The position numbers and the translations under genes are program-made. From an uncultured Acidiferrobacteraceae bacterium (GTDB lineage Bacteria; Pseudomonadota; Gammaproteobacteria; Acidiferrobacterales; SZUA-150): 64,000 nucleotides of DNA. Where the stretch lies: positions 2,026 to 66,025 of the forward strand of contig CAJVXY010000005.1 in NCBI GenBank assembly GCA_913009895.1, in the 5' to 3' direction. The notes beneath the pieces were generated by a model, which did not search any database, was not told the origin of the DNA, and was given only the letters and a program-made list of their open reading frames with translations. How positions within the stretch are numbered: the first letter of the stretch is position 1; each line of letters opens with the position of its first letter. Of the stretch, positions 2,889-45,994 are shown piece after piece.

Positions 2889-3071
2889 ATGGCTACAACC
2901 AAAGAAACTGCCAAACAACTCATCGACCACCTGCCAGACGAGGCTTCCTGGGACGACATTATGTACGAGCTGTATGTGAAGCAAAAAATTGAGTCTGGAC
3001 TGAAGGCTGTTGAAGAGGGCCGCACGATTCCTCACGAAGAAGTAAAAGCCCGAATGCTTGCTAAACGATAA
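2889..3071 (+). CDS. Type II antitoxin partnered with the ParE/RelE-family toxin
   Basis: 60-aa ORF ending 5 nt before the toxin gene. The C-terminal EEGRTIPHEEVKARMLAK segment is typical of small antitoxins found upstream of ParE-like toxins. Confidence 0.7.
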   Translation: MATTKETAKQLIDHLPDEASWDDIMYELYVKQKIESGLKAVEEGRTIPHEEVKARMLAKR

Positions 3072-3076
3072 TCTCG

Positions 3077-3385
3077 ATGAAGATAGAGTGGACGGAACCC
3101 TCTGAAAATGATCTCGGCGAAATTTATGATTACATAGCCCGTGACGCTCCCTATTATGCAGAACAATTTATCGATCGAATTATCGATGCCACAGGTAAAT
3201 TAGAAGACCATCCCAAAATCGGACGCCAGGTACCGGAAGCCAATCTGGACAATGTACGAGAATTAATTTTTCAGAACTACCGGATCATCTACCTCATCAA
3301 ACATAAAGTTATTTATATCATCACTGTTATCCACGACAGCCGGGATCTCAATCTAATGGAGATTAAACCCTGGCATGATAAATAA
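3077..3385 (+). CDS. Type II toxin, RelE/ParE (plasmid stabilisation) family
   Basis: 102 aa. It shows the ParE-like pattern MKIEWTEPSENDLGEIYDYIARDAPYYAEQFIDRI...HPKIGRQVPE...RELIFQNYRIIYLI. Confidence 0.8.
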   Translation: MKIEWTEPSENDLGEIYDYIARDAPYYAEQFIDRIIDATGKLEDHPKIGRQVPEANLDNVRELIFQNYRIIYLIKHKVIYIITVIHDSRDLNLMEIKPWHDK

Positions 3386-3449
3386 AACTTAATTCCGTTA
3401 TCTAACCAGAGCATTAAAAATGGGTCGTATTGAGCACAGATTCTAATAA

Positions 3450-3602
3450 CACTGACTTAAGCCCAATAAGTCTTTTTTTGTAGGTTGGACTGAGGAACGA
3501 AGTCCAACAGTGGCGCTTTATTTAACACTTGCGTTGGACTTCGTTCCTCAGTCCAACCTACGGAAAACCATGTTTAAACCGGATATCAGGCTTAAGTCAG
3601 TG
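3450..3602. mobile_element. Palindromic MITE-like element, copy 1 (153 bp)
   Basis: Outer inverted repeat is cactgacttaagcc/ggcttaagtcagtg. A perfect 29-bp inner inverted repeat (3480-3508 and 3533-3561) encloses a 24-nt loop. A second copy lies at 24573-24724. Confidence 0.8.
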
Positions 3603-3742
3603 CTATTCAGCACAGGCTCCTTTTTTTATAGTTTTTTAGCAGAATTAGAAAAAATGTAACGTGTGCCGTGCGCATAGTGCACGCTACGCTTGCTAATAAT
3701 ATTCTCAGGATTTAATGGTAGAGAGAATCATTTTATTTATTT

Positions 3743-4129
3743 TTAAATATTTCTATTTTTTAATATAATTGGATTCAAATAAAAACTCTGTAACAAAATA
3801 GACCCGGCAAATAAAAAATGAATTAACTCGGGCAAACCAAACCCAATGCTGCTGTTTTCCGGATCCAGGCCAAAATTTAATACAGGCATTAAAACACTAA
3901 GCATTAATAAAAATATATTTATAGAGCTTTCAATTAGTGAAAATAATGCGCCTACTGTAATATTTTTAAAAACTATAAAGCTGGCGATAAAAACTACAAG
4001 GTAATATAAATATAACCAGTAATCGTTTGCGCCGGGAATTGATAACCTTAAATTAATATCGAAAAAATAATACAGGATAAAAAAAACAGGTGTGGCTAAG
4101 TAATAAATCTGTAATAACTTAAAATTCAT
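3743..4129 (-). CDS. Hypothetical polytopic membrane protein, strongly AT-rich
   Basis: 128-aa ORF with about four hydrophobic segments. Its composition differs visibly from the flanking core genes, and no family was recognised. Confidence 0.5.
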   Translation of the reverse strand: MNFKLLQIYYLATPVFFILYYFFDINLRLSIPGANDYWLYLYYLVVFIASFIVFKNITVGALFSLIESSINIFLLMLSVLMPVLNFGLDPENSSIGFGLPELIHFLFAGSILLQSFYLNPIILKNRNI

Positions 4130-10059: not shown

Positions 10060-11100
10060 TTAATCATTGTCGCCACTAAGCGCACCACTAATTAATTTTG
10101 CCGTGATATCCACAATCGGGATGACCCGCTCATAGGACATGCGGGTTGGTCCAATTACGCCCAATGTACCCACTATCCTGTTATCCACCTCGTAAGGTGC
10201 CGTCACGACACTGCAATCTTCAAGGGCCTCGTAACCTGATTCGCGGCCAATGAAAATATTCACACCTTCACAGCGCATACTTTGATCCAGTAAATGCAGT
10301 AAATCCCTTTTAGTACCAAACACATCAAATAATCGCCTCAATGTTTTGACGTCGCCCATATCCGGGATATCCATGAGATTGGACTCACCACTGACGACCA
10401 GTCCTTCATCCCGGGATTCTGCGAATACCTGCTGCGCCATTTCCACAGCGACGCGCATGCTCTTTTGCATGCTTTCACTGTCTCTTTCCATTTCTTTAAG
10501 CAACAGGCGCTTGACCTCGCCCAAGGTCCTGCCAGCGAATTCAGCATTAAAGAAATTAGCCGCCTCGACAAGTTCGGCATCACTGTATTGCCGGCCACTA
10601 TTAAATACACGGTTTTGCACCTGGCCGTCTTTGGCAATTAAAATCACCAGAATGCGTTTAGTCGACAAACGCACGAATTCAATTTGTCTAAAAGCCGAGA
10701 TTTCCTCACGCCTGGGCACGGATACAACTGCCGCTAGCCGGGTCAGCTGGGACAACATAGAAGAGGCATTGGCAATCACGTGTTGCTGATCAATGCCATC
10801 TGTCAGCTCGCCCTGAAGCTGGTTTACCGTAGAGAGATCCATGCGCTCAACACTCAATAAACTATCGACAAATAAACGATATCCTGCCTGGGTTGGTACG
10901 CGACCAGATGACGTGTGGGGTGACCGAATCAGCCCCATATCTTCAAGCTCGGCCATGACGTTACGGATGGTTGCCGGACTTAATTCCAGGCCCGCCTGGG
11001 CAGCCAGGGTGCGTGAACCCACGGGTGTCCCGCCTGATATATATTGCTCAATCAGCGTTTTTAACAGAATCTCTGCCCGTGAATTTAGTGGTGCTGTCAT
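10060..11100 (-). CDS. hrcA: Heat-inducible transcription repressor HrcA
   Basis: The ORF track starts at 11178. The family-typical N-terminus LNSRAEILLKTLIEQYISGGTPVGSRTLA begins at M27 (ATG 11100), which also places the CIRCE operator outside the CDS. Confidence 0.93.
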   Translation of the reverse strand: MTAPLNSRAEILLKTLIEQYISGGTPVGSRTLAAQAGLELSPATIRNVMAELEDMGLIRSPHTSSGRVPTQAGYRLFVDSLLSVERMDLSTVNQLQGELTDGIDQQHVIANASSMLSQLTRLAAVVSVPRREEISAFRQIEFVRLSTKRILVILIAKDGQVQNRVFNSGRQYSDAELVEAANFFNAEFAGRTLGEVKRLLLKEMERDSESMQKSMRVAVEMAQQVFAESRDEGLVVSGESNLMDIPDMGDVKTLRRLFDVFGTKRDLLHLLDQSMRCEGVNIFIGRESGYEALEDCSVVTAPYEVDNRIVGTLGVIGPTRMSYERVIPIVDITAKLISGALSGDND

Positions 11101-11113
11101 GATTTCCCCAGTA

Positions 11114-11140
11114 CTGGCACTCTGTATATAAGAGTGCCAA
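11114..11140. promoter_or_regulatory. CIRCE operator (HrcA binding site)
   Basis: The minus strand reads TTGGCACTC-N9-GAGTGCCAG, against the consensus TTAGCACTC-N9-GAGTGCTAA. It lies 14 nt upstream of the proposed hrcA start. Confidence 0.85.
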
Positions 11141-11143
11141 GGG

Positions 11144-11172
11144 AAGCTAACAATCGCCATACGGGCTGTCAA
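11144..11172 (-). promoter_or_regulatory. Sigma-70-like promoter for hrcA
   Basis: The minus strand has TTGACA, a 17-nt spacer, then TAGCTT, immediately followed by CIRCE. Confidence 0.5.
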
Positions 11173-11294
11173 CTGCAATCCCGAACTGCATCCGATAGTT
11201 ATCCATGAATGGCTTTAAATCTTTAAATCACCCCATAAACACCATTTTATGGAAAGGTGGTGTCAGCGGCGGACAAGCACGGCATAATCACCCC

Positions 11295-14423: not shown

Positions 14424-14855
14424 TTATTCTTCCGAACACTTACCATTTTTCTTCATCCCCACACAAACGCCATAGAAATGCATGGTGTGCTCCTCAATGA
14501 CAAAACCTTTTTCCTTGGCAATATCACGTTGCCGCTGTTCGATCTGCTCATCATAAAATTCAAACACCTTGTGGCACTTCACGCACAACATATGGTCATG
14601 ATGATGACCCTGATTCATTTCGTAAACAGACCGGCCACCTTCAAAATTATGCCGAATCAACAGGCCAGCCTCCTCAAATTGCGTTAACACCCTGTAAACA
14701 GTCGCAAGACCCACATCCTCCCCGGCCTCCACCAGATTTTTATAGACATCATCTGCCCCGAGATGGCCACCTGCCATTTCCAAAATTGACAATATTTTCA
14801 ATCGCGGCAAAGTCGCCTTGAGGCCGGCTTTTTTAAGATCAGTCTTGTCAGTCAT
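14424..14855 (-). CDS. fur: Ferric uptake regulator Fur
   Basis: 143 aa, LKKAGLKATLPRLKIL...HHHDHMLCVKCHKVFEF...EEHTMHFYGVC. Confidence 0.93.
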   Translation of the reverse strand: MTDKTDLKKAGLKATLPRLKILSILEMAGGHLGADDVYKNLVEAGEDVGLATVYRVLTQFEEAGLLIRHNFEGGRSVYEMNQGHHHDHMLCVKCHKVFEFYDEQIEQRQRDIAKEKGFVIEEHTMHFYGVCVGMKKNGKCSEE

Positions 14856-18372: not shown

Positions 18373-18730
18373 GGGGGCGACCTGGCTTCGACGTGGGTCA
18401 CAAAACCTAAGGGGCATGCCGAGGCGCAGTTACCTCGTAAATACAGCTGCAAACTTTATAGTTGCCAACGACGACAACTACGCTCTAGCTGCGTAAAGCA
18501 GGCTAGACCTTTCACTGATACTTGCTTGTGGGTTCAGGTTCGAAAGGTCATTTCACACAAGATCGTGTTGAAGCCCACCCGGGGCCGATTCATTAAACTC
18601 TAATCGGGATCGCTTGTAGTCTACCCTGCCCGTCGGGTAGCTGCCGGTTAAATTTAAAGACACGGCTAAGCATGTAGAACCGAAGGCGGAGTATTTGCGG
18701 ACGCGGGTTCGATTCCCGCCGCCTCCACCA
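18373..18730 (+). ncRNA. ssrA: tmRNA (transfer-messenger RNA, one-piece)
   Basis: 5' GGGGGCGACCTGGCTTCGACG pairs with 3' ...GGACGCGGGTTCGATTCCCGCCGCCTCCACCA (tRNA-Ala-like acceptor and T-arm). There is an internal tag ORF, and the gene lies directly after smpB. Confidence 0.97.
18464..18496 (+). other. tmRNA tag reading frame encoding ANDDNYALAA-stop
   Basis: GCC AAC GAC GAC AAC TAC GCT CTA GCT GCG TAA; compare E. coli ANDENYALAA. Confidence 0.9.
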
Positions 18731-18770: not shown

Positions 18771-19039
18771 GTATGTGTCTGTGCTGAAAAGAAACCGCGT
18801 AGCGGGAGAGATTCCAATGTGCATGGCAAGGATTGTTCCAGACAATCCCCTTGCATTCCCGCCATCCCTGGCGGTCAGATGCACAGGTGCCGCGAAGGCC
18901 AGGGATGGCCGAGAGCGCCCCGCCGCCGCCATACAACAAAGCAAACTCAGCGAGATAATAACCAACTGGAAATTATCGCCGACCTTTTTATCATTTATTT
19001 ATCCAAGCAAGCGCAATATTTCAAAACTGGTCAGCCTGT

Positions 19040-19405
19040 TTATTGATTCCCGACTTCTAACATATTTGTCAAAGCGACTATTGCCACCTGGTTTTTGAGT
19101 TTTTTAGCCAGATCTAATGCTGTTTCTCCTTGTCGATTTCGTTCATTAACATCGGCACCACGTTCAATCAAGGCAGTTATAATATTTGGGTCTGAAACCG
19201 CAGTTGCGGCCCACATCAAGACGCTTCCATTCTTGTTACCATATTTTAGCGCTTCCTGGGGAACTTCTTTCACCGAAGATAATGTTGCTTCTTGCCAAAA
19301 ATTCCTTCTGCTGTATTTCTTGTGAGGATTCATAACAAGCATTGCTATAGCAAACGAAATTACAATCACAAGCGCAATTATATATTTTCTATTTACTGAT
19401 CCCAT
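19040..19405 (-). CDS. Membrane-anchored ankyrin-repeat protein
   Basis: 121 aa with an N-terminal TM helix, then GSVLMWAATAVSDPNIITALIERGADVNERNRQGETALDLA. Confidence 0.7.
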   Translation of the reverse strand: MGSVNRKYIIALVIVISFAIAMLVMNPHKKYSRRNFWQEATLSSVKEVPQEALKYGNKNGSVLMWAATAVSDPNIITALIERGADVNERNRQGETALDLAKKLKNQVAIVALTNMLEVGNQ

Positions 19406-19436
19406 AATTCACACCTTGATAGTTTTTACTCTGACA

Positions 19437-19595
19437 CTAATACGTGGTTTTACCTAAATCGGGCACATCTTCTATTAAGAACTGTCCACGACACAGCGGG
19501 GATATCAGGGCGAGTTTTATGGATGTTTGTTTGCCAACGATAACCGTTTCGATGTTGGCACTGAGGCGTTTTAATTCATCTATTGCGGTGGCCAT
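19437..19595 (-). pseudogene. N-terminal fragment (52 codons) of a MoxR-like AAA+ ATPase
   Basis: The minus strand reads MATAIDELKRLSANIETVIVGKQTSIKLALISPLCRGQFLIEDVPDLGKTTY-stop. The frame ends inside the Walker A motif (GxGKT). Confidence 0.5.
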
Positions 19596-19788
19596 AAATT
19601 CCCTTTTTTGTCATTTTTAAAATCCTGGTTAAGCAGATTTTTTGAAGAAATACCCGCCTATAGTATAGATTTATAATGCGAATATTAAGTATGATTATGT
19701 TGTCGATTGCTCATTATATTAGCAAAACATTATTTACTGCTTATACAATATAGAATCATTCTAAAAAATATCACAAGGAATATAAATT

Positions 19789-20553
19789 ATGGGTACGTTG
19801 TTCATGGTGGGAATCGCAATCGCAGCCATAGGCGGTATTTGGCTGTTAATACTTGCATTTAAAGAAAGTTTTATTTGGGGAATAGGCTTTATTATTGTTC
19901 CCTTTGTGAGCCTCATATTTGTGGTTTTGAACTGGGGCAAAACATGGAAACCATTTCTTATTAATGTGATCGGTGGCGCACTGATATTTGCCGGGTACAC
20001 AACAACTATGCCGGATTTATATGAACTGGAAATGCTCACACAGGCGCAGGAAGAAATAACAAGACAGCTGAAAAATGGTGAGATAACACAGCAACAAGCA
20101 CAAACAGAACAGTTAAAAATAGTACAGGCCATGGCGGGAGGCGAAAAATACGTAAGTAGTTTCGACAGGCAAGAAATCGCCCCGGAACGACCTCTTGGTT
20201 ATACCCTCAGATCTGCTGAACCTGAAAAAGAAACACTTTCTGATTCGGAAAAAAAAGCGATCCAGAAAGAAAGAATAGAACAAGCCATCAGGAATGAATC
20301 AAAATACAAGAAAATTGTTAAGGCTAATGATCGAAAAAAAGGTTTCGTAGTAATTCATGCGGATGACGCATCGAAATATGTTGGCGAAGAAATAAAAGTC
20401 ACCATGAAAAAAGGCCAGGTAAGAAGCGGCGTACTTGTGGACACTGGCAAAAATACATTGCTGGTAGAAAGAAGAACGAGAAGTGGAAGGTATTCATTCA
20501 ACCTGGAGACTAAAAAAATAAAGAAGATAGAAGTCAATACGTGGTTGAACTAG
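19789..20553 (+). CDS. Hypothetical membrane protein (3 TM, Q/E-rich linker, small C-terminal beta-rich domain)
   Basis: 254-aa ORF preceded by an AT-rich upstream region; no family recognised. Confidence 0.55.
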   Translation: MGTLFMVGIAIAAIGGIWLLILAFKESFIWGIGFIIVPFVSLIFVVLNWGKTWKPFLINVIGGALIFAGYTTTMPDLYELEMLTQAQEEITRQLKNGEITQQQAQTEQLKIVQAMAGGEKYVSSFDRQEIAPERPLGYTLRSAEPEKETLSDSEKKAIQKERIEQAIRNESKYKKIVKANDRKKGFVVIHADDASKYVGEEIKVTMKKGQVRSGVLVDTGKNTLLVERRTRSGRYSFNLETKKIKKIEVNTWLN

Positions 20554-20622
20554 GGGAGTTCGAATTTACCCCCCCTTTTTTTTCCTTTTTTATTTTATCC
20601 GAATCGATTTTATTGTTGGCAT

Positions 20623-20910
20623 TTACTTTCTTAATGCTTTTAATACTGCACTAGGTTCTTTTGCAACAACATTAAGTAGGACCAGGGCTGGGCCATGAGG
20701 TGTACGGTCGCCGCGCTCCCAGTGTCGCAATGTACTGACACTAATACCAAATGCAGATGCAAATTCGTTTTGTGACATACCGACCTTGGCGCGAATCTTT
20801 TTCACGTCTACAGGTGTAAATTTATGTACGATGGCTTTTTGTTTTTTGCCTTTTGAAAATTCCAGGGCTTCATCCATGCCCTGTTTGATACTATCGAATG
20901 CACTACTCAT
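20623..20910 (-). CDS. HTH (XRE/COG2944-like) antitoxin of a HigBA-type module
   Basis: MSSAFDSIKQGMDEALEF...VGMSQNEFASAFGISVSTLRHWERGDRTPHGPALVLL. Its ATG overlaps the toxin stop (ATGAGTAG). Confidence 0.8.
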   Translation of the reverse strand: MSSAFDSIKQGMDEALEFSKGKKQKAIVHKFTPVDVKKIRAKVGMSQNEFASAFGISVSTLRHWERGDRTPHGPALVLLNVVAKEPSAVLKALRK

Positions 20911-21244
20911 TATGGCCTCCATAATTCTTAACAAGGAGAGACGTAAATTTTGCTAATTTATTACGCTCACTTTTTGAAATGTTAGCCTTTTCGCTTTTAC
21001 CGAAAATAGTTAACAGGAATAAAGGCATAGATCCATGATGGTAATAATAAATAACACGAACTCCACCACTTTTACCTTTGCCGTGTGCCGACCATCGTAA
21101 CTTGCGAATGCCCCCAGTGCCTTGCATTATGTCGCCAGATGCAGGATGAGATGCTAAGTACTTGATAATACTTGCTCTTTCCAGCTCACTGAGTAATTTA
21201 TCTGGTTTTTTCAGAAATTCAGGGAGTTCTACGATAGTTTGCAT
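20903..21244 (-). CDS. RelE/HigB-like toxin (COG4737-like)
   Basis: MQTIVELPEFLKK...GTGGIRKLRWSAHGKGKSGGVRVIYYYHHGSMPLFLLTIFGKSEKANIS. The track ORF (to 21394) over-extends into the repeat region. Confidence 0.8.
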   Translation of the reverse strand: MQTIVELPEFLKKPDKLLSELERASIIKYLASHPASGDIMQGTGGIRKLRWSAHGKGKSGGVRVIYYYHHGSMPLFLLTIFGKSEKANISKSERNKLAKFTSLLVKNYGGHNE

Positions 21245-21311
21245 CTCTAGATGCATAATCCATTGGATTATAGCTGTCAATGTGAGTTTATGAGAAGAGG
21301 AAAGGGGTGGC

Positions 21312-22055
21312 TCACTCTGACCTGGTTTTTTTGGGTGGCGTGGTATTGTCAAACAAGTGACTTGACCCCCCTCTCTGACCCCCCTCTCTCCCAAACAAGT
21401 GACTTGACCCCCCTCTCTCCATTTTTGAACACCAAATTAGGTAATTTGTCATACATAAATCTATTCTAACTTTATATATTTTCTCATCTAGCAATTCAAT
21501 TAGAATTGGATAAGAATATTTTTTAAATAGTATATTATTATTTTTATAAATTTCTATTCCTTCTAATGTGGCATAGTTATAATTAACCCATTTTTTAATT
21601 TCATCTAAATCATTCAATATAATTTTTTTTATTTCGTTATTATTTTCTCCTTCAATTTCTAGTGATCCAAGGATAGTTTTTTCTTCTAGAATGATTGTTA
21701 TAGAAAGACTGCTATCTGGAAAATATTTAATTACGAAAGCAGGAATTAATATTTCAATTTTACTTCCGTTAAAATAAATACTTGCACTAGTAATTTGGCT
21801 CTGAATATCATTTATAGATATTAATTTTCTGGGTTCATAACTTACATCTGTAAAACACTGATATAAATAGTCTGATTCCATTAAACTTATTATTTTCGAT
21901 ATATTCTTTTTTCCTTTATTGTTATATTTACTACATATTGTTGCATCGCTTACTTTTGGGATTAATATTTTATGAATAGTACATGTGCAATTACCAGCAT
22001 TACTTATGAGAAAGAATTCACAATTTTTACAATTTTCATTATTAACAATCATCAT
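21312..22055 (-). CDS. Hypothetical protein, very AT-rich, with an N-terminal Cys cluster
   Basis: 247 aa. The N-terminus reads CKNCEFF...NCTCTIH...ICSKY. The last ~35 codons (ERGGSSHLFGREGGQRGGSSHLF...) are read from the 26-bp repeats. Confidence 0.5.
   Translation of the reverse strand: MMIVNNENCKNCEFFLISNAGNCTCTIHKILIPKVSDATICSKYNNKGKKNISKIISLMESDYLYQCFTDVSYEPRKLISINDIQSQITSASIYFNGSKIEILIPAFVIKYFPDSSLSITIILEEKTILGSLEIEGENNNEIKKIILNDLDEIKKWVNYNYATLEGIEIYKNNNILFKKYSYPILIELLDEKIYKVRIDLCMTNYLIWCSKMERGGSSHLFGREGGQRGGSSHLFDNTTPPKKTRSE
21351..21418. repeat. 26-bp direct repeat x2 (aaacaagtgacttgacccccctctct) with an internal 13-bp partial copy
   Basis: Full copies at 21351-21376 and 21393-21418; partial copy gacccccctctct at 21377-21389. 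Confidence 0.85.
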
Positions 22056-22168
22056 AGGATCTCTCTATTACCACTGCACCATGACCAAACCAAATAAATG
22101 GCATCATTATTATTGTCTCAATAAATCCTCTACTGTTCTTTCTCTTCTTCATTAGCCTATCCCAATAT

Positions 22169-22306
22169 CCAGCTCTTGTTATTCAATCCAAGATGGCGAT
22201 TGTGGGTGCTGCCATGCGTAAACTGGTGCATTTAATCTACGGCGTACTTAAAAGTGGTGTACTGTTTGATGCTGATTACGTGATGAAGCAAACTAAAAAT
22301 GCTTGA
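22169..22306 (+). pseudogene. C-terminal remnant of an IS110-family transposase
   Basis: Translation PALVIQSKMAIVGAAMRKLVHLIYGVLKSGVLFDADYVMKQTKNA-stop matches the conserved IS110 C-terminal tail (…MRKLLHIIFGVLKSGKPFD…). No upstream catalytic part is present. Confidence 0.6.
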
Positions 22307-22377
22307 CGGTCAAGACGGTATCTGACCCGGGTTTTCTCGTCCCCTATTGCGTTCTCTGACCCGGGGTTTTTTTGGTT

Positions 22378-22692
22378 TTAAATATTCAGAAACCATATGG
22401 CAGCAACCATCAACATAATCCCGCTTCCTATCAACCCAATCATGTGAGACAAATTTTTCTTACTAGGCTTATTGATGATAACCGATTTTGTGGGGTGAAG
22501 TGGATTCACAAAAATCTGTATCGTTTTATTCTCAAACCAATTCAACCAAAATCTTCTATCGCTCTCAATAACATTACCCAATTCATCTACCTCGGGCACC
22601 CAATAGTCTTTTATGCTAAAACCTACCTTGCCTGATATAAACTCTCTACCATTATACTGGTATCTATAATTTATTTTGGGGTAATGAATCAA
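22378..22692 (-). CDS. Hypothetical protein with a C-terminal TM helix (possibly DUF3592-like)
   Basis: 104-aa AT-rich ORF; the family assignment is from memory only. Confidence 0.45.
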   Translation of the reverse strand: MIHYPKINYRYQYNGREFISGKVGFSIKDYWVPEVDELGNVIESDRRFWLNWFENKTIQIFVNPLHPTKSVIINKPSKKNLSHMIGLIGSGIMLMVAAIWFLNI

Positions 22693-22695
22693 TTT

Positions 22696-22712
22696 AAGGG
22701 GTCAGTACCCTT
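22696..22712. repeat. REP hairpin, form A (aaggggtcagtaccctt)
   Basis: 5-bp stem around a 7-nt loop. It contains the stop codon and last codons of the adjacent Y1 transposase. Inverted copies lie at 23465-23481 and 25661-25677, with a partial copy at 26211-26220. Confidence 0.75.
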
Positions 22713-23400
22713 TAATTACACGTACTGGCCGACCGCGACGTGACTGCCCTACTTTACAGCCCAATGTCTGCTCTATCTGCTGACGAAAATAATCATTCCC
22801 CAGCGGTGTGCCTGTCTGTACTGTAGTCCGAATAGTATGCACCTGATCAGGCGCCAGCGCATTACAAAATAATTCCCGATAAGCGTGTTGGCGAAGCGCA
22901 GCACTTTTACCCAGCGCCAGGTATTGTTCATGAGGCGCAATAAGCCGATTGAATTTACCTGTGGCATTCGACCCGTAGCTTGACCAGGGGTAGTCAATGG
23001 GTTGGTTAACCATCCCTGCCCTTACCGGGTTGAGCTCTATGTAACGCATACAGGCCAATAAATAATACTCGCTATCAATAAGACACCCCTTGTGTCGCCC
23101 CTCCCAGAGTGTGCCGCTTTTTCCATAGCTGTGGTTAATATAGGGCACATAGTGACGACCAGTATGTTGAATGGTGAGGCTGATTGCTTCGGGGCTACGG
23201 GGTGTCATTAGTAAATGCACATGGTTTGTCATTAAGACATAAGCATGAATGACGCACCCATGTTTATTAGCGCCTTCGTATAACCAGTTAAGGTAAGCAG
23301 TGTAATTATCATTTTCAAAAAAGACTGCCTGCCGACAGTTGCCTCTTTGAATAATATGGGCCGGAATATCCGGAAGATAAAATCGGGGTTTACGTGGCAT
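22702..23400 (-). CDS. IS200/IS605-like Y1 (HUH) transposase of the REP-associated (RAYT) type
   Basis: 232 aa, MPRKPRF...HAYVLMTNHVHLLMTP (HUH)...GTLWEGRHKGCLIDSEYYLLACMRYIELNPVRAGMV...YPWSSY. It is bracketed by inverted REP hairpins. Confidence 0.8.
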   Translation of the reverse strand: MPRKPRFYLPDIPAHIIQRGNCRQAVFFENDNYTAYLNWLYEGANKHGCVIHAYVLMTNHVHLLMTPRSPEAISLTIQHTGRHYVPYINHSYGKSGTLWEGRHKGCLIDSEYYLLACMRYIELNPVRAGMVNQPIDYPWSSYGSNATGKFNRLIAPHEQYLALGKSAALRQHAYRELFCNALAPDQVHTIRTTVQTGTPLGNDYFRQQIEQTLGCKVGQSRRGRPVRVIKGY

Positions 23401-23464
23401 ATGAACATCCTTGTTCAGTTAATGACGTTTAAATTTTAACGGGTTTTTGTATTTAAGGGTACTG

Positions 23465-23481
23465 ACCCCTTTGTTACTTAA
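23465..23481. repeat. REP hairpin, form B (aagggtactgacccctt)
   Basis: Exact reverse complement of the 22696-22712 copy, on the other side of the Y1 transposase gene. Confidence 0.75.
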
Positions 23482-23623
23482 CCCTCTGGGCCAAATACGC
23501 CGGGTTAGCGGCACCGGCCAGGGCATCAAAACGATAACTGCCATGGCTTGCCAGTTTCACATAAGGGGTATTAAACAAACCGGCCTGACGGAAATGTTTT
23601 TTCCTGAGTTTGGGTTTGTTTTT

Positions 23624-24523
23624 TTAATATAGTTCTAGCGGGAATCTTACGCTGTGTGGATTTTCAATCCAAATAAAAAAAAGTTCCTGCAAACTAAAAT
23701 TACGCCCCCACAAACCCCAATAACTCAGCGCACTTTCCCTGATTGATTCTTCCAATTTCGTATTACGCATTGATTTTATAGCGACAAGATACGATTCCTG
23801 AATGTTTTTAATCTCCCCCCAGCCAGGATAGTTTCTAAATTCAAATGGAAAATATACTTTTGGTGCAAAAAACTTCGTACCAGAATCTGAATATGGAAGA
23901 ATAAAATACTTTTTCATGGTATTGATGACCTTAAAATCAATATCCTGATGAGCGATATAGGCTCTAAACTCTACCGCTTCTTTTCCAAGTATATGAACAA
24001 TATTTTTCGAGCTCATCGCTCTATCGAATAAGCCCATAATATTTTTACTTGTATAGTGCGATAAGGAAATTAATGCAAACCAAATATCCAATTGATATTC
24101 ATCTTTATCTAGTAACTTAGAAAATGTATAGATTGTTTCTTCTATTGCGCTCTCTTCACCAAACATAGTTTTAATAAACCTTACTGCCGCTTGACTTCGG
24201 ATATTTTTTGATGGTCCATGCAGTTCTTCATGTTCTTTTATGCAACTAAAAACAGTTCCCCGATCTAATGTCAGCAAGACATCTGACGGATACATTACGT
24301 ACATATCTTCATCATCAATGAATAATAACGAGACGGCTTTTTTTATAATTGCAGTATTTTTTTCAAAGTTATAATCAAGCTTAATTATTTCCTGTGTTGC
24401 ACGAAATGATGCATCTGATTTGGTTGAATCCAGGAATTCGAGTAATGTTAAAACAATTTTTTCCTTCTCGTAATCCTCGGTCGAATCACGAAATTCTCTT
24501 AAAATATCTTGAATTGGTCGCAT
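23624..24523 (-). CDS. Hypothetical protein, AT-rich, predicted alpha-helical
   Basis: The ORF track extends to 24634 through the MITE; the likely start is MRPIQDILREF (ATG 24523). No family recognised. Confidence 0.5.
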   Translation of the reverse strand: MRPIQDILREFRDSTEDYEKEKIVLTLLEFLDSTKSDASFRATQEIIKLDYNFEKNTAIIKKAVSLLFIDDEDMYVMYPSDVLLTLDRGTVFSCIKEHEELHGPSKNIRSQAAVRFIKTMFGEESAIEETIYTFSKLLDKDEYQLDIWFALISLSHYTSKNIMGLFDRAMSSKNIVHILGKEAVEFRAYIAHQDIDFKVINTMKKYFILPYSDSGTKFFAPKVYFPFEFRNYPGWGEIKNIQESYLVAIKSMRNTKLEESIRESALSYWGLWGRNFSLQELFFIWIENPHSVRFPLELY

Positions 24524-24572
24524 AATTATATTTTTTATCAAAACCCGAAAAACCCGGGTCAGAGAATAATGG

Positions 24573-24724
24573 CACTGACTTAAGCCCAATAAGTCTTTTG
24601 TGTAGGTTGGACTGAGGAACGAAGTCCAACGCAAGTGCTAAATAAAGCGCCGCTGTTGGACTTCGTTCCTCAGTCCAACCTACGGAGAACTATGTTTAAA
24701 CCAGATATTAGGCTTAAGTCAATG
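24573..24724. mobile_element. Palindromic MITE-like element, copy 2
   Basis: Same outer ends and the same perfect 29-bp arms (24602-24630 and 24655-24683) as copy 1. The 24-nt loop is the reverse complement of the copy-1 loop (22 of 24 positions). Confidence 0.8.
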
Positions 24725-24766
24725 CCATTAGGGTCTGCCATTAGGGTCAGTGCCATTAGGGTCAGA
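24724..24766. repeat. Tandem repeat gccattagggtc(n) x3
   Basis: gccattagggtct gccattagggtcagt gccattagggtcaga, abutting the MITE. Confidence 0.8.
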
Positions 24767-24786
24767 GAACAATTATTACTAATATA

Positions 24787-25526
24787 CTAATCAATGTAAT
24801 ACACACCCAAGCTTTCTTCAATACAGGGCCGTCCAGCCTGCCCTTTTCTTGTTTGTCTTTTGGTCATTTGTTCTATTTTATCTTTAAAATCATCTCGTCC
24901 TAACACCAATTCCTGATTCAGTGCTTCACGAATATCATGCAACAGGGTGCCATCCATATGATGGTGAAACAATTCCCGGTATGCGTGTTGTCTTGCGGCT
25001 GTTGTATTCGCTATTGCTAAATACAGGGGGTGGGGTGTTATCAATGTATCTGACCTGCTCTGGGCATGAAAGGCGTAACGGACCAACGATACTCGCCGGT
25101 ATGTTTAACCATGTTGGCACGAACAGGGTTGAGTTCAATGTAGCGCATACAAGTCAGCAGGTACGCTTCGCTATCAATCAGGCTGGCCTTAAACCGACCT
25201 TCCCAGAGCGTGCCAGAACGTTTGTATTCATGGTTAATATAACGGACATAACGCCTGCCCAGTGATTGCATGACTTCTGAAATACCGAATTCTGTTAAGG
25301 GCGTGATGAGCAGGTGTACATGGTTAGTCATCAAGACATAAGCATGGATATGACAATGAAACTTGTCACAGGCTGATTTCAGATCTTGTTTGTAGCGAAC
25401 ATAATCCTGTTCTGAAAAGAAACAAGGCTCACGATTGTGACCTCTTTGGATGATGTGTTGGGGTACGCCGGGCAGAGTAAAACGGGGTTTTCTTGGCATA
25501 TTCACCTCCTTGTGAATGGTTACCAT
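24787..25526 (-). pseudogene. Second Y1/RAYT-type transposase paralog, split by a frameshift near 25040-25090
   Basis: ORF 25041-25526 carries MPRKPRF...NHVHLLITP...GTLWEGRFKASLIDSEAYLLTCMRYIELNPVRANMV...YRWS. ORF 24787-25086 continues in another frame with YAFHAQ...ARQHAYRELF..., collinear with the intact paralog. Confidence 0.7.
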
Positions 25527-25590
25527 TTAAAATTATTATATGATTTTATTTTAAAATATTAGCAGTTATGTATATTAGAAGATATTGTTC

Positions 25591-25620
25591 TCTGACCCGG
25601 GTTTTTCTGACCCGGGTTTT
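25591..25620. repeat. 15-bp tandem repeat tctgacccgggtttt x2
   Basis: Read directly. Related single copies lie at about 22321-22336 and 22349-22366 and, in reverse orientation, at 24547-24564 and 24758-24770. Confidence 0.8.
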
Positions 25621-25657
25621 TCAGTTAATGACAGTTTAAATATTAACGCGTTATGAA

Positions 25658-25996
25658 TTAAAGGGTACTGACCCCTTTGTTGCCGCCTTTGTTGCCGCTA
25701 GTTTTTGGCTTGCCAATCTTATCGATTTTTAGCTGGATTATAAAAGGCGATATAAAAAATACTAAAGCAAAATAGCTTATTAAAATCTTTAACCATCTTG
25801 TCGACATCCCTGTACTGTAATAAGTCATTCCAAACAAAAAACCTAAGACAACCACAATTATTGCAAAAGGAAGCATTTTGAGTATATTGATGCTTAACAC
25901 TGAGCCACACTGTTTGCATATTAATCTTTTATAACGATTTAGAAATAGTAAATCTCTATATCGTATTTTTTCATTGCATTTTGGACATTTTTTCAT
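25658..25996 (-). CDS. Zinc-ribbon (CxxC...CxxC) membrane protein
   Basis: 112 aa, MKKCPKCNEK...ICKQCGS, then 2-3 TM helices. The C-terminal GNKGGNKGVSTL is encoded by a 12-bp duplication plus the REP. Confidence 0.5.
   Translation of the reverse strand: MKKCPKCNEKIRYRDLLFLNRYKRLICKQCGSVLSINILKMLPFAIIVVVLGFLFGMTYYSTGMSTRWLKILISYFALVFFISPFIIQLKIDKIGKPKTSGNKGGNKGVSTL
25661..25677. repeat. REP hairpin, form B
   Basis: aagggtactgacccctt. It supplies the last codons and stop of ORF 25658-25996. Confidence 0.75.
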
Positions 25997-26216
25997 TTTA
26001 CAAGTCTCTGTGGTTTAATAAAAAACTACTGTTGACAGTTCGCCTTTTCAAACTCGTCAGTGTACTGAATAAAAACATAACCAACTAAAGCGGCAACAAG
26101 AGCACCAATAAGCAGGCTCCTAGTAACTAATGAAAATGCTATGCCAACCAATATTGTCACTGCCGAGAAGGCAGCTATCAAAAATGCGAGGCTTTCACCT
26201 CCTGAATGTTAAGGGG

Positions 26217-26440
26217 TCAGGTTGCTTGCTTCACAATACTCTCAATCGCTTCATTTAGCCGATGTAAAAATACCTTGTTTTCCCGTTTCTTCTTTCTGAT
26301 CTGGTGGGTGATAAAACTCACCGAGCCAGCATGGCTGAGTTTAAAGCGCTCTGCAATGTCTTTGAGTGTTGCCCCAATTCCTGACACAAATTCATCGCAA
26401 TTTTACGTGTATCATTGCCTTTTTGAGAGCCATTAATCAC
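26217..26440 (-). pseudogene. Remnant encoding a DnaA-C-like HTH (possibly the 3' end of a third transposase-like gene)
   Basis: The minus strand reads ...GATLKDIAERFKLSHAGSVSFITHQIRKKKRENKVFLHRLNEAIESIVKQAT-stop. The upstream part (RKIAMNLCQELG) is in a different frame, and there is no intact start. Confidence 0.4.
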
Positions 26441-26803
26441 CGTTGTCAGCCGAGCAGGCGTGGTGTGCCGGGCGGGCCACCCCTTTAACAATCGCTGCCA
26501 TCAAGATGCCTGGCAGGTTAGCCCGACTTTTTCTGCCGCATCGAGCTAATGATATAATTCTATATTATATTTCAGGTTATTGACGATTATATCAATTTCT
26601 AACAATCCCGGATAACACAAAGCAACTAAAACAAGGCCTTACCAACACCCGCTCAACCAAAACGACCCCTTGCAACCACCTGTTATGGATCCCAAACAAG
26701 CTGTCAGCGGCAATGGTTTTGGTGTAGTCTTGGCCCTCATTTTGGGGGCGGCAGGCATTTTATGCTGTAATTCTCCTGTATAATCACACTATTAATTTTA
26801 AAA

Positions 26804-27331
26804 ATGCTAATGACTTCAGAAAAAAAACATAGTTTCACGCGTGATGAGTTACTCGATTGCGGGCATGGTAAATTATTTGGCCCGGATAACGCCCGTTTAC
26901 CACTGCCAAACATGCTCATGTTTGACCGAATTACCCGTATATCCGACCAGGGCGGCAGCAAGGGCAAGGGCGAGATTATTGCCGAATTGGATGTAACGTC
27001 TGATTTGTGGTTTTTTGGCTGCCATTTTGAGTCTGATGCGGTGATGCCTGGCTGTCTTGGGCTGGATGCCATGTGGCAACTGATTGGTTTTTACCTCGGC
27101 TGGGCCGGTGGTCTCGGTCGCGGGCGGGCACTGGGTGCCGGCGAGGTTAAATTTTCCGGGCAAGTCACGCCTGCTAATAAACTTGTGACATATCATGTGA
27201 ATTTGCGTCGCGTGATTATGAGACAATTGACCATGGGAATTGCCGATGCGACCATGAGCGTGGATGGCCGTGAAATATATTTTGCCAAAGACCTGCGAGT
27301 CGGTCTGTTTACGTCTACAGAAGATTTTTAG
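26804..27331 (+). CDS. fabA: 3-hydroxydecanoyl-ACP dehydratase/isomerase
   Basis: 175 aa, near-collinear with E. coli FabA ([12 protein letters not shown]...[27 protein letters not shown]...GEVKFSGQV). Confidence 0.96.
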
Positions 27332-41261: not shown

Positions 41262-41486
41262 CTAGGCCTTGCGAATATCGAAAACAAATTCACCGTTGTT
41301 TTCGCCAGAAGACATCAGCTCGTTACCTGTTTGCTTGCAAAATGCCTCGAAGTCTTTTACAGAACCCGGGTCAGTAGCAATAATGTGCAATACCTGTCCA
41401 GATTCAAGGTCATTAATGCTCTTTTTCGCACGTAAAATCGGTAGTGGGCAATTTAATCCCCGTGCATCCAGTTCCATATCAGCCAT
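41262..41486 (-). CDS. tusA: TusA/SirA-family sulfur carrier protein
   Basis: 74 aa, LDARGLNCPLPILRAKK, with the conserved Cys-Pro motif. Confidence 0.8.
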   Translation of the reverse strand: MADMELDARGLNCPLPILRAKKSINDLESGQVLHIIATDPGSVKDFEAFCKQTGNELMSSGENNGEFVFDIRKA

Positions 41487-45830: not shown

Positions 45831-45994
45831 AATTTCTCCAGCGAGTCATGGAGTAGTCGCTGTAATAGCAAACAATAGAGGCTAGATCAAGCATTTATTA
45901 TCGTACTAAGATTTATACATAGAAACCCCGGGTCAGCATCATCTGAAAATAGCTACAAGTCCGTTAGCGTACTAAAAAGGGCAGGACTTCCCCC

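Follow-up and report, generated by a model that had tools for sequence, protein, structure and literature searches.

What assembled the run of AT-rich genes that lies between ssrA and fabA in an uncultured Acidiferrobacteraceae bacterium, and what have the repeats between these genes done to their ends? The locus (20623-26440) belongs to a stretch of 64,000 nucleotides (nt), hereafter the window, taken from contig CAJVXY010000005.1 of GenBank assembly GCA_913009895.1 (positions 2,026 to 66,025). An initial, sequence-only reading had described it as a cassette-like array of orphan genes, all on the minus strand, separated by repetitive extragenic palindromic (REP) hairpins and other short repeats that rewrite the 3' ends of open reading frames (ORFs). 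According to the explanation that we consider probable, the locus is a permissive hotspot colonised by two elements, each made of a REP-associated tyrosine transposase (RAYT) and its REP sequences, in which insertions or recombination left clipped and chimeric ORF ends.

The block lies in a variable segment specific to this strain; relatives with ~86% and ~75% nucleotide identity in both flanks lack it. Four related loci (L081, L084, L085 and L088) were reached from other members of one 90% SmpB cluster; each retains smpB-ssrA to the left and fabA-fabB to the right, with differing genes in between. In the window the variable segment covers ~7.5 kb (~19049-26547), from a lysR remnant downstream of ssrA to fabA. 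The left anchor is the transfer-messenger RNA (tmRNA) gene ssrA (18373-18730, plus strand; ARAGORN; Rfam RF00023, 233.5 bits), and in blastn comparisons with L084, L085 and L088 conservation stops exactly at its 3' end, position 18730. The right conserved flank consists of the fabA promoter region and fabA itself (26548-27331, plus strand, with fabA at 26804-27331; blastn and gene tables). Conserved flanks thus lie at ≤18730 and ≥26548-26591, with nucleotide identities of 82-87% for L081, L084 and L085 and 74-77% for L088, and between them blastn finds only the 3' remnant of a lysR-type gene conserved (18921-19048, plus strand; 82-86% identity to L081:13051-13178 and L084:5713-5833). In the relatives, the lysR-type gene comes after ssrA and lactamase_B. 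These two genes, lactamase_B and the LysR regulator, are all that the interval holds in L084 and L085 (3.3 kb). The interval of L081 adds a helix-turn-helix (HTH)/toxin pair, a truncated Y1_Tnp RAYT, an Aas-like gene and LpxD, the toxin being 33% identical to that of the window and the truncated RAYT 60% identical to the RAYT-1 described below; that of L088 carries a P-type ATPase and LpxD. Apart from RAYT cross-matches, blastn found the content of 19049-26547 in none of the four relatives, and the repeats REP-1, REP-2 and a hairpin resembling a miniature inverted-repeat transposable element (MITE) were not found in them either. The suggestion that the block is variable was therefore borne out, as relatives keeping smpB-ssrA and fabA-fabB carry entirely different content, and the lysR-fabA interval next to ssrA is most likely a permissive hotspot for accessory genes.

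What had been read as REP hairpins are inverted repeats that flank two Y1 transposase units of RAYT type. The RAYT-1 unit (22696-23471, minus strand) is bounded by inverted REP-1 copies at 22696-22712 (minus) and 23455-23471 (plus), and its gene (22702-23400) encodes an intact 232-aa Y1/HUH transposase whose stop codon falls within the 3' REP, the gene end reading AAA GGG TAC TGA inside REP-1. An unrelated marine metagenome yielded a 770-bp contig (L083) that matches 22690-23459 at 99.87% identity and therefore spans RAYT-1 from REP to REP. The RAYT-2 unit (24744-25613, minus strand) has 44-nt inverted arms (24744-24787 and 25570-25613) that end in REP-2. Its gene (24787-25526) is a Y1 transposase pseudogene: a frameshift near 25077-25080, where the tblastn match passes from frame -3 to frame -2, leaves the two ORFs 25041-25526 and 24787-25086. 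Both products exceed the cut-off of 23 bits for PF01797 (Y1_Tnp; 37.1 bits for RAYT-1 and 64.4 for RAYT-2), and the best-scoring model for both is the RayT equivalog NF047646 (65.8 and 76.5 bits). An assignment to IS200/IS605 TnpA was rejected, as the NF033573 scores, 16.7 and 32.1 bits, fall short of the cut-off of 55. The two transposases share 54-61% amino-acid identity and lie within 2.8 kb, and both repeat types carry a common GGGTCAG core. Residues H60, H62 and Y120 of the HUH and Tyr motifs are invariant in an alignment of 14 RAYT homologues. No further RAYT copy was found in the window by tblastn.

Four kinds of repeat occupy the junctions (REP-1, REP-2, REP-3 and the MITE-like element), each in numbers well beyond random expectation. 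The window contains three copies of REP-1 (AAGGGTACTGACCCCTT), every one in the block, against 0.01 expected. REP-2 (TCTGACCCGGGTTTT) matches the window nine times with ≤2 mismatches, where 0.18 matches would be expected; the block holds six of these, four exact, and the three copies outside this islet are degenerate. Degenerate REP-2-like sites outside the islet include 41361-41375 (ACTGACCCGGGTTCT) and 45923-45937 (GCTGACCCGGGGTTT). Within the block, REP-2 also occurs as two solo copies (TCTGACCCGGGTTTT) at 22321-22370 (plus strand), as a solo copy at 24547-24566 (minus strand), 24 nt upstream of the start codon of the gene orphan-299, and in degenerate form at 21316, in the tail of the gene orphan-247. 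REP-3 is a 27-nt direct repeat (21350-21376 and 21392-21418) with a third, partial copy. The MITE-like element (24560-24737) forms a near-perfect hairpin of ~175 nt (DNA fold -61.1 kcal/mol, z -15.6) and is one of two copies in the window, the other lying at ~3437-3600; each has perfect inner arms of 29 nt and outer arms of ~32 nt, so that the 29-nt perfect inverted repeat counts four arms against none expected. It is followed by tandem 13-15-bp GCCATTAGGGTC repeats (24718-24763). A second copy of the RAYT-1 5' leader with REP-1, free of the RAYT-1 gene, lies at 25617-25681 (plus strand; 78% identity to 23411-23475), fused to a REP-2 doublet. The motif CTGACCC is concentrated here, with 12 of its 26 window copies within this 12% of the window (P = 2e-5): it is present in REP-1 and REP-2, REP-3 has TTGACCC and one CTGACCC, and the MITE termini have only CTGAC. 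As single hairpins, REP-1 and REP-2 fold weakly. Repeat DNA, which had been placed at every junction, was found in seven of nine, those at 20554-20622 and 25997-26025 being repeat-free. Nor do the repeats form the uniform boundary that the word "cassette" implies; they are the inverted flanks of two RAYT units together with solo copies, a MITE-like hairpin and a local tandem repeat.

Several gene ends lie in this repeat DNA. At least three ORFs end inside repeats, as had been read from the sequence, namely orphan-247, a 112-aa ORF and RAYT-1, and so does an HTH gene remnant, to which a REP-1 half-site (CCTGACCCCTTAA, 26214) supplies the TGA stop. The clearest case is orphan-247. Its core of 212 codons (21421-22055, minus strand) has 23% GC and is followed by a 35-codon tail (21312-21420, minus strand) of 54% GC that holds REP-3; the last ~35 codons do read through the repeats at 21350-21420, as proposed. 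A metagenome contig (L093) is 100% identical to window positions 22815-21420 over 1396 nt, a stretch covering the RAYT-1 3' end, REP-1, a DUF3592-like ORF, the REP-2 doublet, an IS110 fragment and orphan-247. It diverges exactly past codon 212 of orphan-247, where its ORF stops (...WCSKM-stop). The sole homologue of orphan-247 among 1.8 billion representatives (P0024, 44% identity) ends in WCAKKYSE-stop, four residues beyond codon 212. Because L093 stops at codon 212, P0024 ends four residues later and the tail, absent from both, has 54% GC, the tail is foreign to orphan-247: it is junction and repeat DNA read in frame, not ancestral protein. The 3' end of this gene is thus seen in three versions, with ~4 native codons in the homologue, an immediate stop in the sister population and 35 repeat-derived codons in the window.

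Other gene ends bear similar marks. The 112-aa ORF (25658-25996) ends ...GNKGGNKGVSTL-stop across a 12-bp tandem duplication (25674-25685 and 25686-25697) and REP-1, with its last five codons and stop in REP-1, which agrees with the earlier description. Residues 2-90 of 112 cover positions 1-91 of the 93-position TIGR04104 profile, and it is plausible, judging from the sequence, that the 3' end of this gene was rewritten or extended by the repeat. The 104-aa DUF3592-like frame starts at the very stop codon of RAYT-1, within REP-1; for this reason the ORF appears to be 5'-truncated by the RAYT-1 unit, and probably is. The general claim that repeats reshape protein C-termini holds for orphan-247 and fails for RAYT-1 and for orphan-299, whose C-terminus is conserved at the protein level, being common to homologues at 87% and 71% identity.

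For RAYT-1, the stop codon is indeed taken from a REP, as had been stated, but the idea of a recent rewriting did not survive comparison, since a REP at or over the stop recurs across the RAYT clade. RAYT-1 homologues number in the thousands in Gammaproteobacteria (65-76% identical, 227-243 aa). From these, 80 homologous metagenome loci were fetched (L096-L175), and the 77 with a complete ORF were counted. The inverted core (GGGTCRG) lies ≤110 nt upstream of the start in 49 of the 77 loci, and a core lies within -21 to +33 nt of the stop in 40. Ten loci take their stop codon from the TGA within CTGACCC and so end in KGY-stop or KGL-stop; in 10 more the ORF continues across the core in a different frame, with tails such as KGTDPF-stop and KRALTP-stop; and in 20 the core follows the stop by 5-26 nt. 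The 3' core therefore supplies the stop or the last codons in 20 of the 77 loci, in three different frames. One of the fetched loci (L170) carries a RAYT-2-type gene with REP-2-type flanks in the architecture of RAYT-2. The REP over the RAYT-1 stop thus belongs to a terminal structure that this transposase conserves as its own, at the level of DNA. Subtypes of the flanking hairpin in this clade include AAAGGGTACTGACCCCTTT, AAAGGGCTCTGACCCCTTT and a long form AAAGGGGTCGGTGACAAATGA...TCATTTGTCACCGACCCCTTT, all with a GGGGTC/GACCCC core.

Near-identical populations carry alternative junctions at 21420 and 24538, as seen in two metagenome contigs (L093 and L090) that are 99.7-100% identical to the window up to their breakpoints. 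At 21420, where the window has REP-3 and HigB, L093 continues with ~75 nt of unique sequence, three REP-2 copies in tandem and a RAYT-2-like gene 85% identical at the nucleotide level to that of the window. At 24538, 15 nt upstream of the orphan-299 ATG, L090 continues with AT-rich sequence where the window has REP-2, the MITE-like element and RAYT-2; the solo REP-2 at 24547 begins 8 nt beyond this breakpoint. The REP-2 array directly upstream of the RAYT-2-like gene of L093 (L093:1465-1535) is made of three tandem 22-nt units (AAAACCCGAAAACCCGGGTCAG) and that of the window of two, which shows that array copy number varies between populations. The orphan genes themselves have homologues in other settings: that of orphan-299 (P0023) stands beside sucCD on L094, and P0024 lies between IS3- and IS256-type transposases on L095. 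Neither homologue has flanking REPs on L094 or L095; the movement or acquisition of the genes therefore has another cause. The proposed shuffling of gene-sized modules thus stands insofar as two junctions have alternative neighbours; a mobilisation of the genes by REPs finds no match in the homologues on L094 and L095. We conclude that RAYT/REP elements mark the breakpoints and probably help to create them.

On this basis we propose the following course of events. The hotspot would take up horizontally acquired AT-rich accessory genes along with a stabilising RelE/HTH toxin-antitoxin (TA) pair. Two different RAYT-REP elements would then colonise it and leave solo repeats behind, and an element of the insertion sequence (IS) family IS110 would insert next to a REP. 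Repeat or RAYT insertion, with deletion or recombination anchored at repeats, probably made the junctions. Such events would have clipped a few codons from the orphan-247 3' end, so that the ORF now reads 35 codons through repeat DNA; they would likewise have lengthened the TIGR04104 gene, removed the 5' part of the DUF3592 gene and produced the lysR, MoxR-like, IS110 and HTH gene fragments.

Some observations weigh against this explanation. Insertion and recombination are not directly observed, and the order of events and the causal role of the repeats are inferred. Both RAYTs score below the NF047646 cut-off (65.8 and 76.5 against 80). Over the remaining 56 kb, REP-1 is absent and REP-2 present only in degenerate form, so that these are low-copy flanking repeats and not a demonstrated genome-wide REP population. 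For the TIGR04104 gene no available homologue places the ancestral stop, and the window's version at 21420 and 24538 lacks independent confirmation. The run of same-strand genes is not accounted for, with ~60% of the long ORFs of the window on the minus strand.

Among other explanations, the one that survives best, and is still unlikely, is a single integrative island that entered through a tyrosine integrase at the ssrA 3' end and then decayed, with the repeats and RAYTs as passengers. Gene ssrA is a classic island target, and AT-rich cargo with a TA module is typical island content. The block has both and is 0.3 kb from ssrA, on the downstream side, and degenerate copies of the ssrA 3' end are present downstream of ssrA in L084 and at 18919-18935 of the window. 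This account is opposed by the absence of an integrase gene from the block and of a direct repeat of the ssrA 3' end from the far boundary: CCCGCCGCCTCCACCA (≤3 mismatches) matches elsewhere only at 14719, outside the region, and in alignment the degenerate copy at 18919-18935 is proximal, not distal. Moreover, window-specific DNA begins after the lysR remnant, not at ssrA. The GC content of the components spans 23-49% and independent homologues occur in unrelated contexts (L094 and L095), which argues for piecemeal acquisition.

We also consider it unlikely that the RAYT-REP system is still autonomously mobile in an IS-like manner, with REPs as preferred breakpoints for shuffling in accessory hotspots, or, separately, that the REP over the stop codon couples termination to the hairpin. 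In the first case, the RAYT system would be a local engine of accessory-gene shuffling, not a domesticated single-copy gene, and REP breakpoints would yield "cassette" polymorphism at the population level and new C-terminal peptides. In the second, the recurrent 3' REP over the stop, found in three reading frames across the clade, might act in autoregulation, tying the termination of RAYT translation to the formation of the REP hairpin.

Distinctly improbable is the more specific idea that RAYT excises and reinserts REP-flanked gene modules as composite single-strand transposons and so actively shuffles the orphans. It would fit the alternative neighbours at module boundaries in near-identical contigs, the intact HUH and Tyr motifs of RAYT-1 and the bracketing of several genes by REP copies. 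Against it stand the REP-free homologues of orphan-299 and orphan-247 on L094 and L095; the REPs around a given gene differ in type and are not consistently inverted, and the breakpoint of L093 falls in unique sequence, not in a shared repeat.

An assembly artefact, in which reads of co-existing strains were joined via short repeats into a chimera, is very unlikely. The source contig may come from a metagenome assembly, and two of its junctions differ from the contigs of another sample. The contigs of that other sample nevertheless reproduce 19200-20701 and 21420-24538 at ≥99.7%, and four junction-spanning stretches recur at 99.7-100% (L083, L090, L091 and L093). The discordant breakpoints at 21420 and 24538 lie outside any repeat common to both versions, which a de Bruijn chimera would need, and this argues against assembly chimeras. 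The last 43 nt of one short contig (L092:1364-1406) are Illumina adapter (GATCGGAAGAGCGTCGTGTAGGGAAAGAGTGT...), not genomic DNA.

An integron-like array, with promoterless same-strand cassettes, a TA module among them, captured at attC sites by an integron integrase, was rejected as next to impossible: its likeness to the block is superficial (co-oriented AT-rich ORFs, a HigBA-like TA pair and repeats between units), no integrase is present in the block, nor within the ~4-7 kb of core genes, syntenic in relatives, to either side of it, no ORF of the block matches an integrase family, no attC-like RYYYAAC...GTTRRRY occurs at the junctions (the sole regular-expression match, 20496-20550, is inside the coding sequence of a 254-aa protein), the junction repeats are heterogeneous (REP-1, REP-2, REP-3 and MITE), and two of the "cassettes" are transposase units with inverted ends of their own.

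With these alternatives weighed, colonisation of a permissive hotspot by two RAYT-REP elements remains our preferred explanation, and the gene content of the block can be described accordingly. All eight ORFs listed in the sequence-only reading are present on the minus strand, with the amendments that two are frameshifted and that a plus-strand IS110 fragment lies inside the block. The orphan genes are more AT-rich than the core, as was reported, with 23-35% GC (orphan-247 core, 0.230; orphan-299, 0.339; 112-aa gene, 0.322; 104-aa gene, 0.352) against 45.6% in the rest of the window (0.456); the orphan-247 tail (21312-21420) stands at 0.541. The label "orphan" was too strict for two of them, as the 112-aa protein belongs to TIGR04104 and the 104-aa ORF matches DUF3592 just under the Pfam cut-off (24.8 against 25.3 bits).

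The window-specific segment opens with a minus-strand gene for a 121-aa ankyrin-repeat protein (19040-19405; PF00023, 23.4 bits, cut-off 21.1) that has no match in the relatives. Next to it, a minus-strand fragment of 52 codons (19437-19595) resembles the N-terminus of a MoxR-type AAA ATPase through a GKQ...PGLGKT-like motif recognised by eye only; it has no Pfam match. The 254-aa membrane protein (19789-20553, plus strand) has 99.8% identical copies on the short contigs L091 and L092. The interval 20623-21244 encodes a type II TA pair, with family scores above their cut-offs: an HTH antitoxin of NadS/MqsA-like type (20623-20934, minus strand; NF041265, 67.8 bits, cut-off 60; Pfam HTH_3 and MqsA_antitoxin) and a RelE-superfamily toxin (20903-21244, minus strand; PF06296, 36.9 bits, cut-off 27; phrog_5869, E 3e-28). 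The toxin is upstream of the antitoxin, in HigBA-like order, and the two genes adjoin at 20903-20934.

Orphan-299 (23624-24523, minus strand) encodes a lineage-restricted protein that is predicted to be all-alpha. Its 299-aa product and the 247-aa product of orphan-247 matched no Pfam or NCBIfam family, and searches of PADLOC and PHROGs returned nothing for them except one weak PADLOC match for the 247-aa protein. The AlphaFold2 (AF2) model of orphan-247 has a pLDDT of 33; that of orphan-299 reaches 60.8 and has no PDB fold match at E ≤ 0.001. Between these two genes, the C-terminal fragment of an IS110-family transposase (22178-22305, plus strand; from its translation and tblastn against plasmids, E 5e-7) abuts the REP-2 doublet, and the 104-aa DUF3592-like ORF (22378-22692, minus strand; PF12158, E 3.7e-5) covers only positions 25-81 of the 84-position profile. 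An open frame of ~48 codons and 49% GC (23480-23623, minus strand; by translation) ends 4 nt before REP-1; it has no Pfam match and no tblastn match among plasmids, and is a possible C-terminal gene remnant. Beyond RAYT-2, the 112-aa zinc-ribbon membrane protein (25658-25996, minus strand; TIGR04104, 48 bits, cut-off 45) is followed by a putative hydrophobic ORF of 51 aa (26026-26181, minus strand), which has only weak Pfam matches. The last unit is a frameshifted 3' gene remnant whose HTH resembles DnaA_C (26217-26500, minus strand; merged translation PF08299, E 0.0012, 19.3 bits, below cut-off). For annotation, the 247-, 104- and 112-aa products are best handled as chimeric or truncated and 24787-25526 as a pseudogene.

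Beyond the block, positions 2889-4129 form a second small AT-rich islet (37% GC) with a ParE toxin (3077-3385; PF05016, E 2e-20) and its 60-aa upstream partner, the other MITE-like hairpin copy and a 128-aa hydrophobic orphan ORF (3743-4129). Around ssrA, L084:3560-3960 contains two partial copies of the ssrA 3' end downstream of the gene, and the window has a stretch homologous to L084 (18780-18935) that ends in a degenerate copy (CCCGCCGCCGCCA) joined to the lysR remnant; these copies look like scars of earlier integrations or of microhomology deletion. A 42-nt segment with a hairpin (18822-18863; GGCAAGG...CCTTGC) occurs once in the window and has an inverted match of 93-95% identity in L084 and L085, between genes and downstream of that for RnfH; it may represent one more small dispersed repeat. 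In L081 (ENA ERZ1742238, NODE_116_length_86205), an insert of ~310 nt (10880-11201) splits the tmRNA gene in the T-arm and matches the group I intron model RF00028 (E 5.6e-10; 44.8 bits against a gathering score of 50). Past the insert the gene continues with its acceptor 3' end TCCCGCCGCCTCCACCA; the tmRNA gene of the window is uninterrupted.

Together, our results leave current concepts unchanged; accessory-hotspot mosaicism is a well-documented kind of genome plasticity. Their value lies in natural variants that document how transposase-associated short repeats, and recombination at their copies, remodel gene ends. The ~230-aa RAYT clade of sulfur-oxidising and other Gammaproteobacteria is large and apparently uncharacterised, and its conserved GGGGTCRG hairpin core, often placed over the stop codon, may be a lead worth following.

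Four known systems offer points of comparison. Chromosomal integron arrays share with the block co-oriented small ORFs, TA modules and repeats between units; in contrast, the block has no intI or attI and no attC structure, its repeats are heterogeneous and transposase genes stand among the units. The resemblance to tmRNA-associated islands extends to strain-specific foreign DNA downstream of ssrA, a TA module, mobile-element debris and scars such as the duplications of the ssrA 3' end. Here, however, integrase and att repeats are absent, the variable DNA starts past the lysR remnant and the content looks piecemeal.

Closer parallels are found in the Coxiella QMITE1/2 and the enterobacterial RU elements, where, as here, small repeats over stop codons add C-terminal residues. 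Repeat-derived C-terminal extensions are described for RU elements (PMC2759123), and the Coxiella protein EnhC gains 33 aa from QMITE2 in one strain and has its stop just before the element in another (PMC5896051). EnhC is a direct parallel to orphan-247, with its 35 added residues in the window and its stop at the junction in L093. IS110-family elements target REP or MITE copies (PMC8450116, PMC5896051), and, as with QMITE, such an element adjoins the repeats here. Unlike QMITE and RU elements, the repeats of the block are RAYT flanks and a local tandem repeat, not one dispersed MITE family, and a single islet is compared.

The closest framework is the REP/RAYT concept (Bertels & Rainey 2011, PMC3116915; Bertels et al. 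2017, PMC5581495; both citing Nunvar et al. 2010). The Y1/HUH gene, its catalytic motifs, the inverted short palindromic flanks and the nearby solo copies all correspond, and each RAYT type of the block pairs with its own repeat type. The differences are that the ~230-aa proteins fall under the NCBIfam RayT cut-off, that the repeats are low-copy in 64 kb with no REP-1 outside the islet, that the two RAYT types lie 1.4 kb apart with one of them dead, and that the 3' REP overlaps the stop codon. The related RAYT-2 copy at another junction, that of L093, is more IS-like than the single-copy, vertically inherited RAYT groups. In this IS-like behaviour the RAYTs of the block resemble Group 1, which has few copies of its flanking repeats and shows signs of horizontal transfer (PMC5581495).

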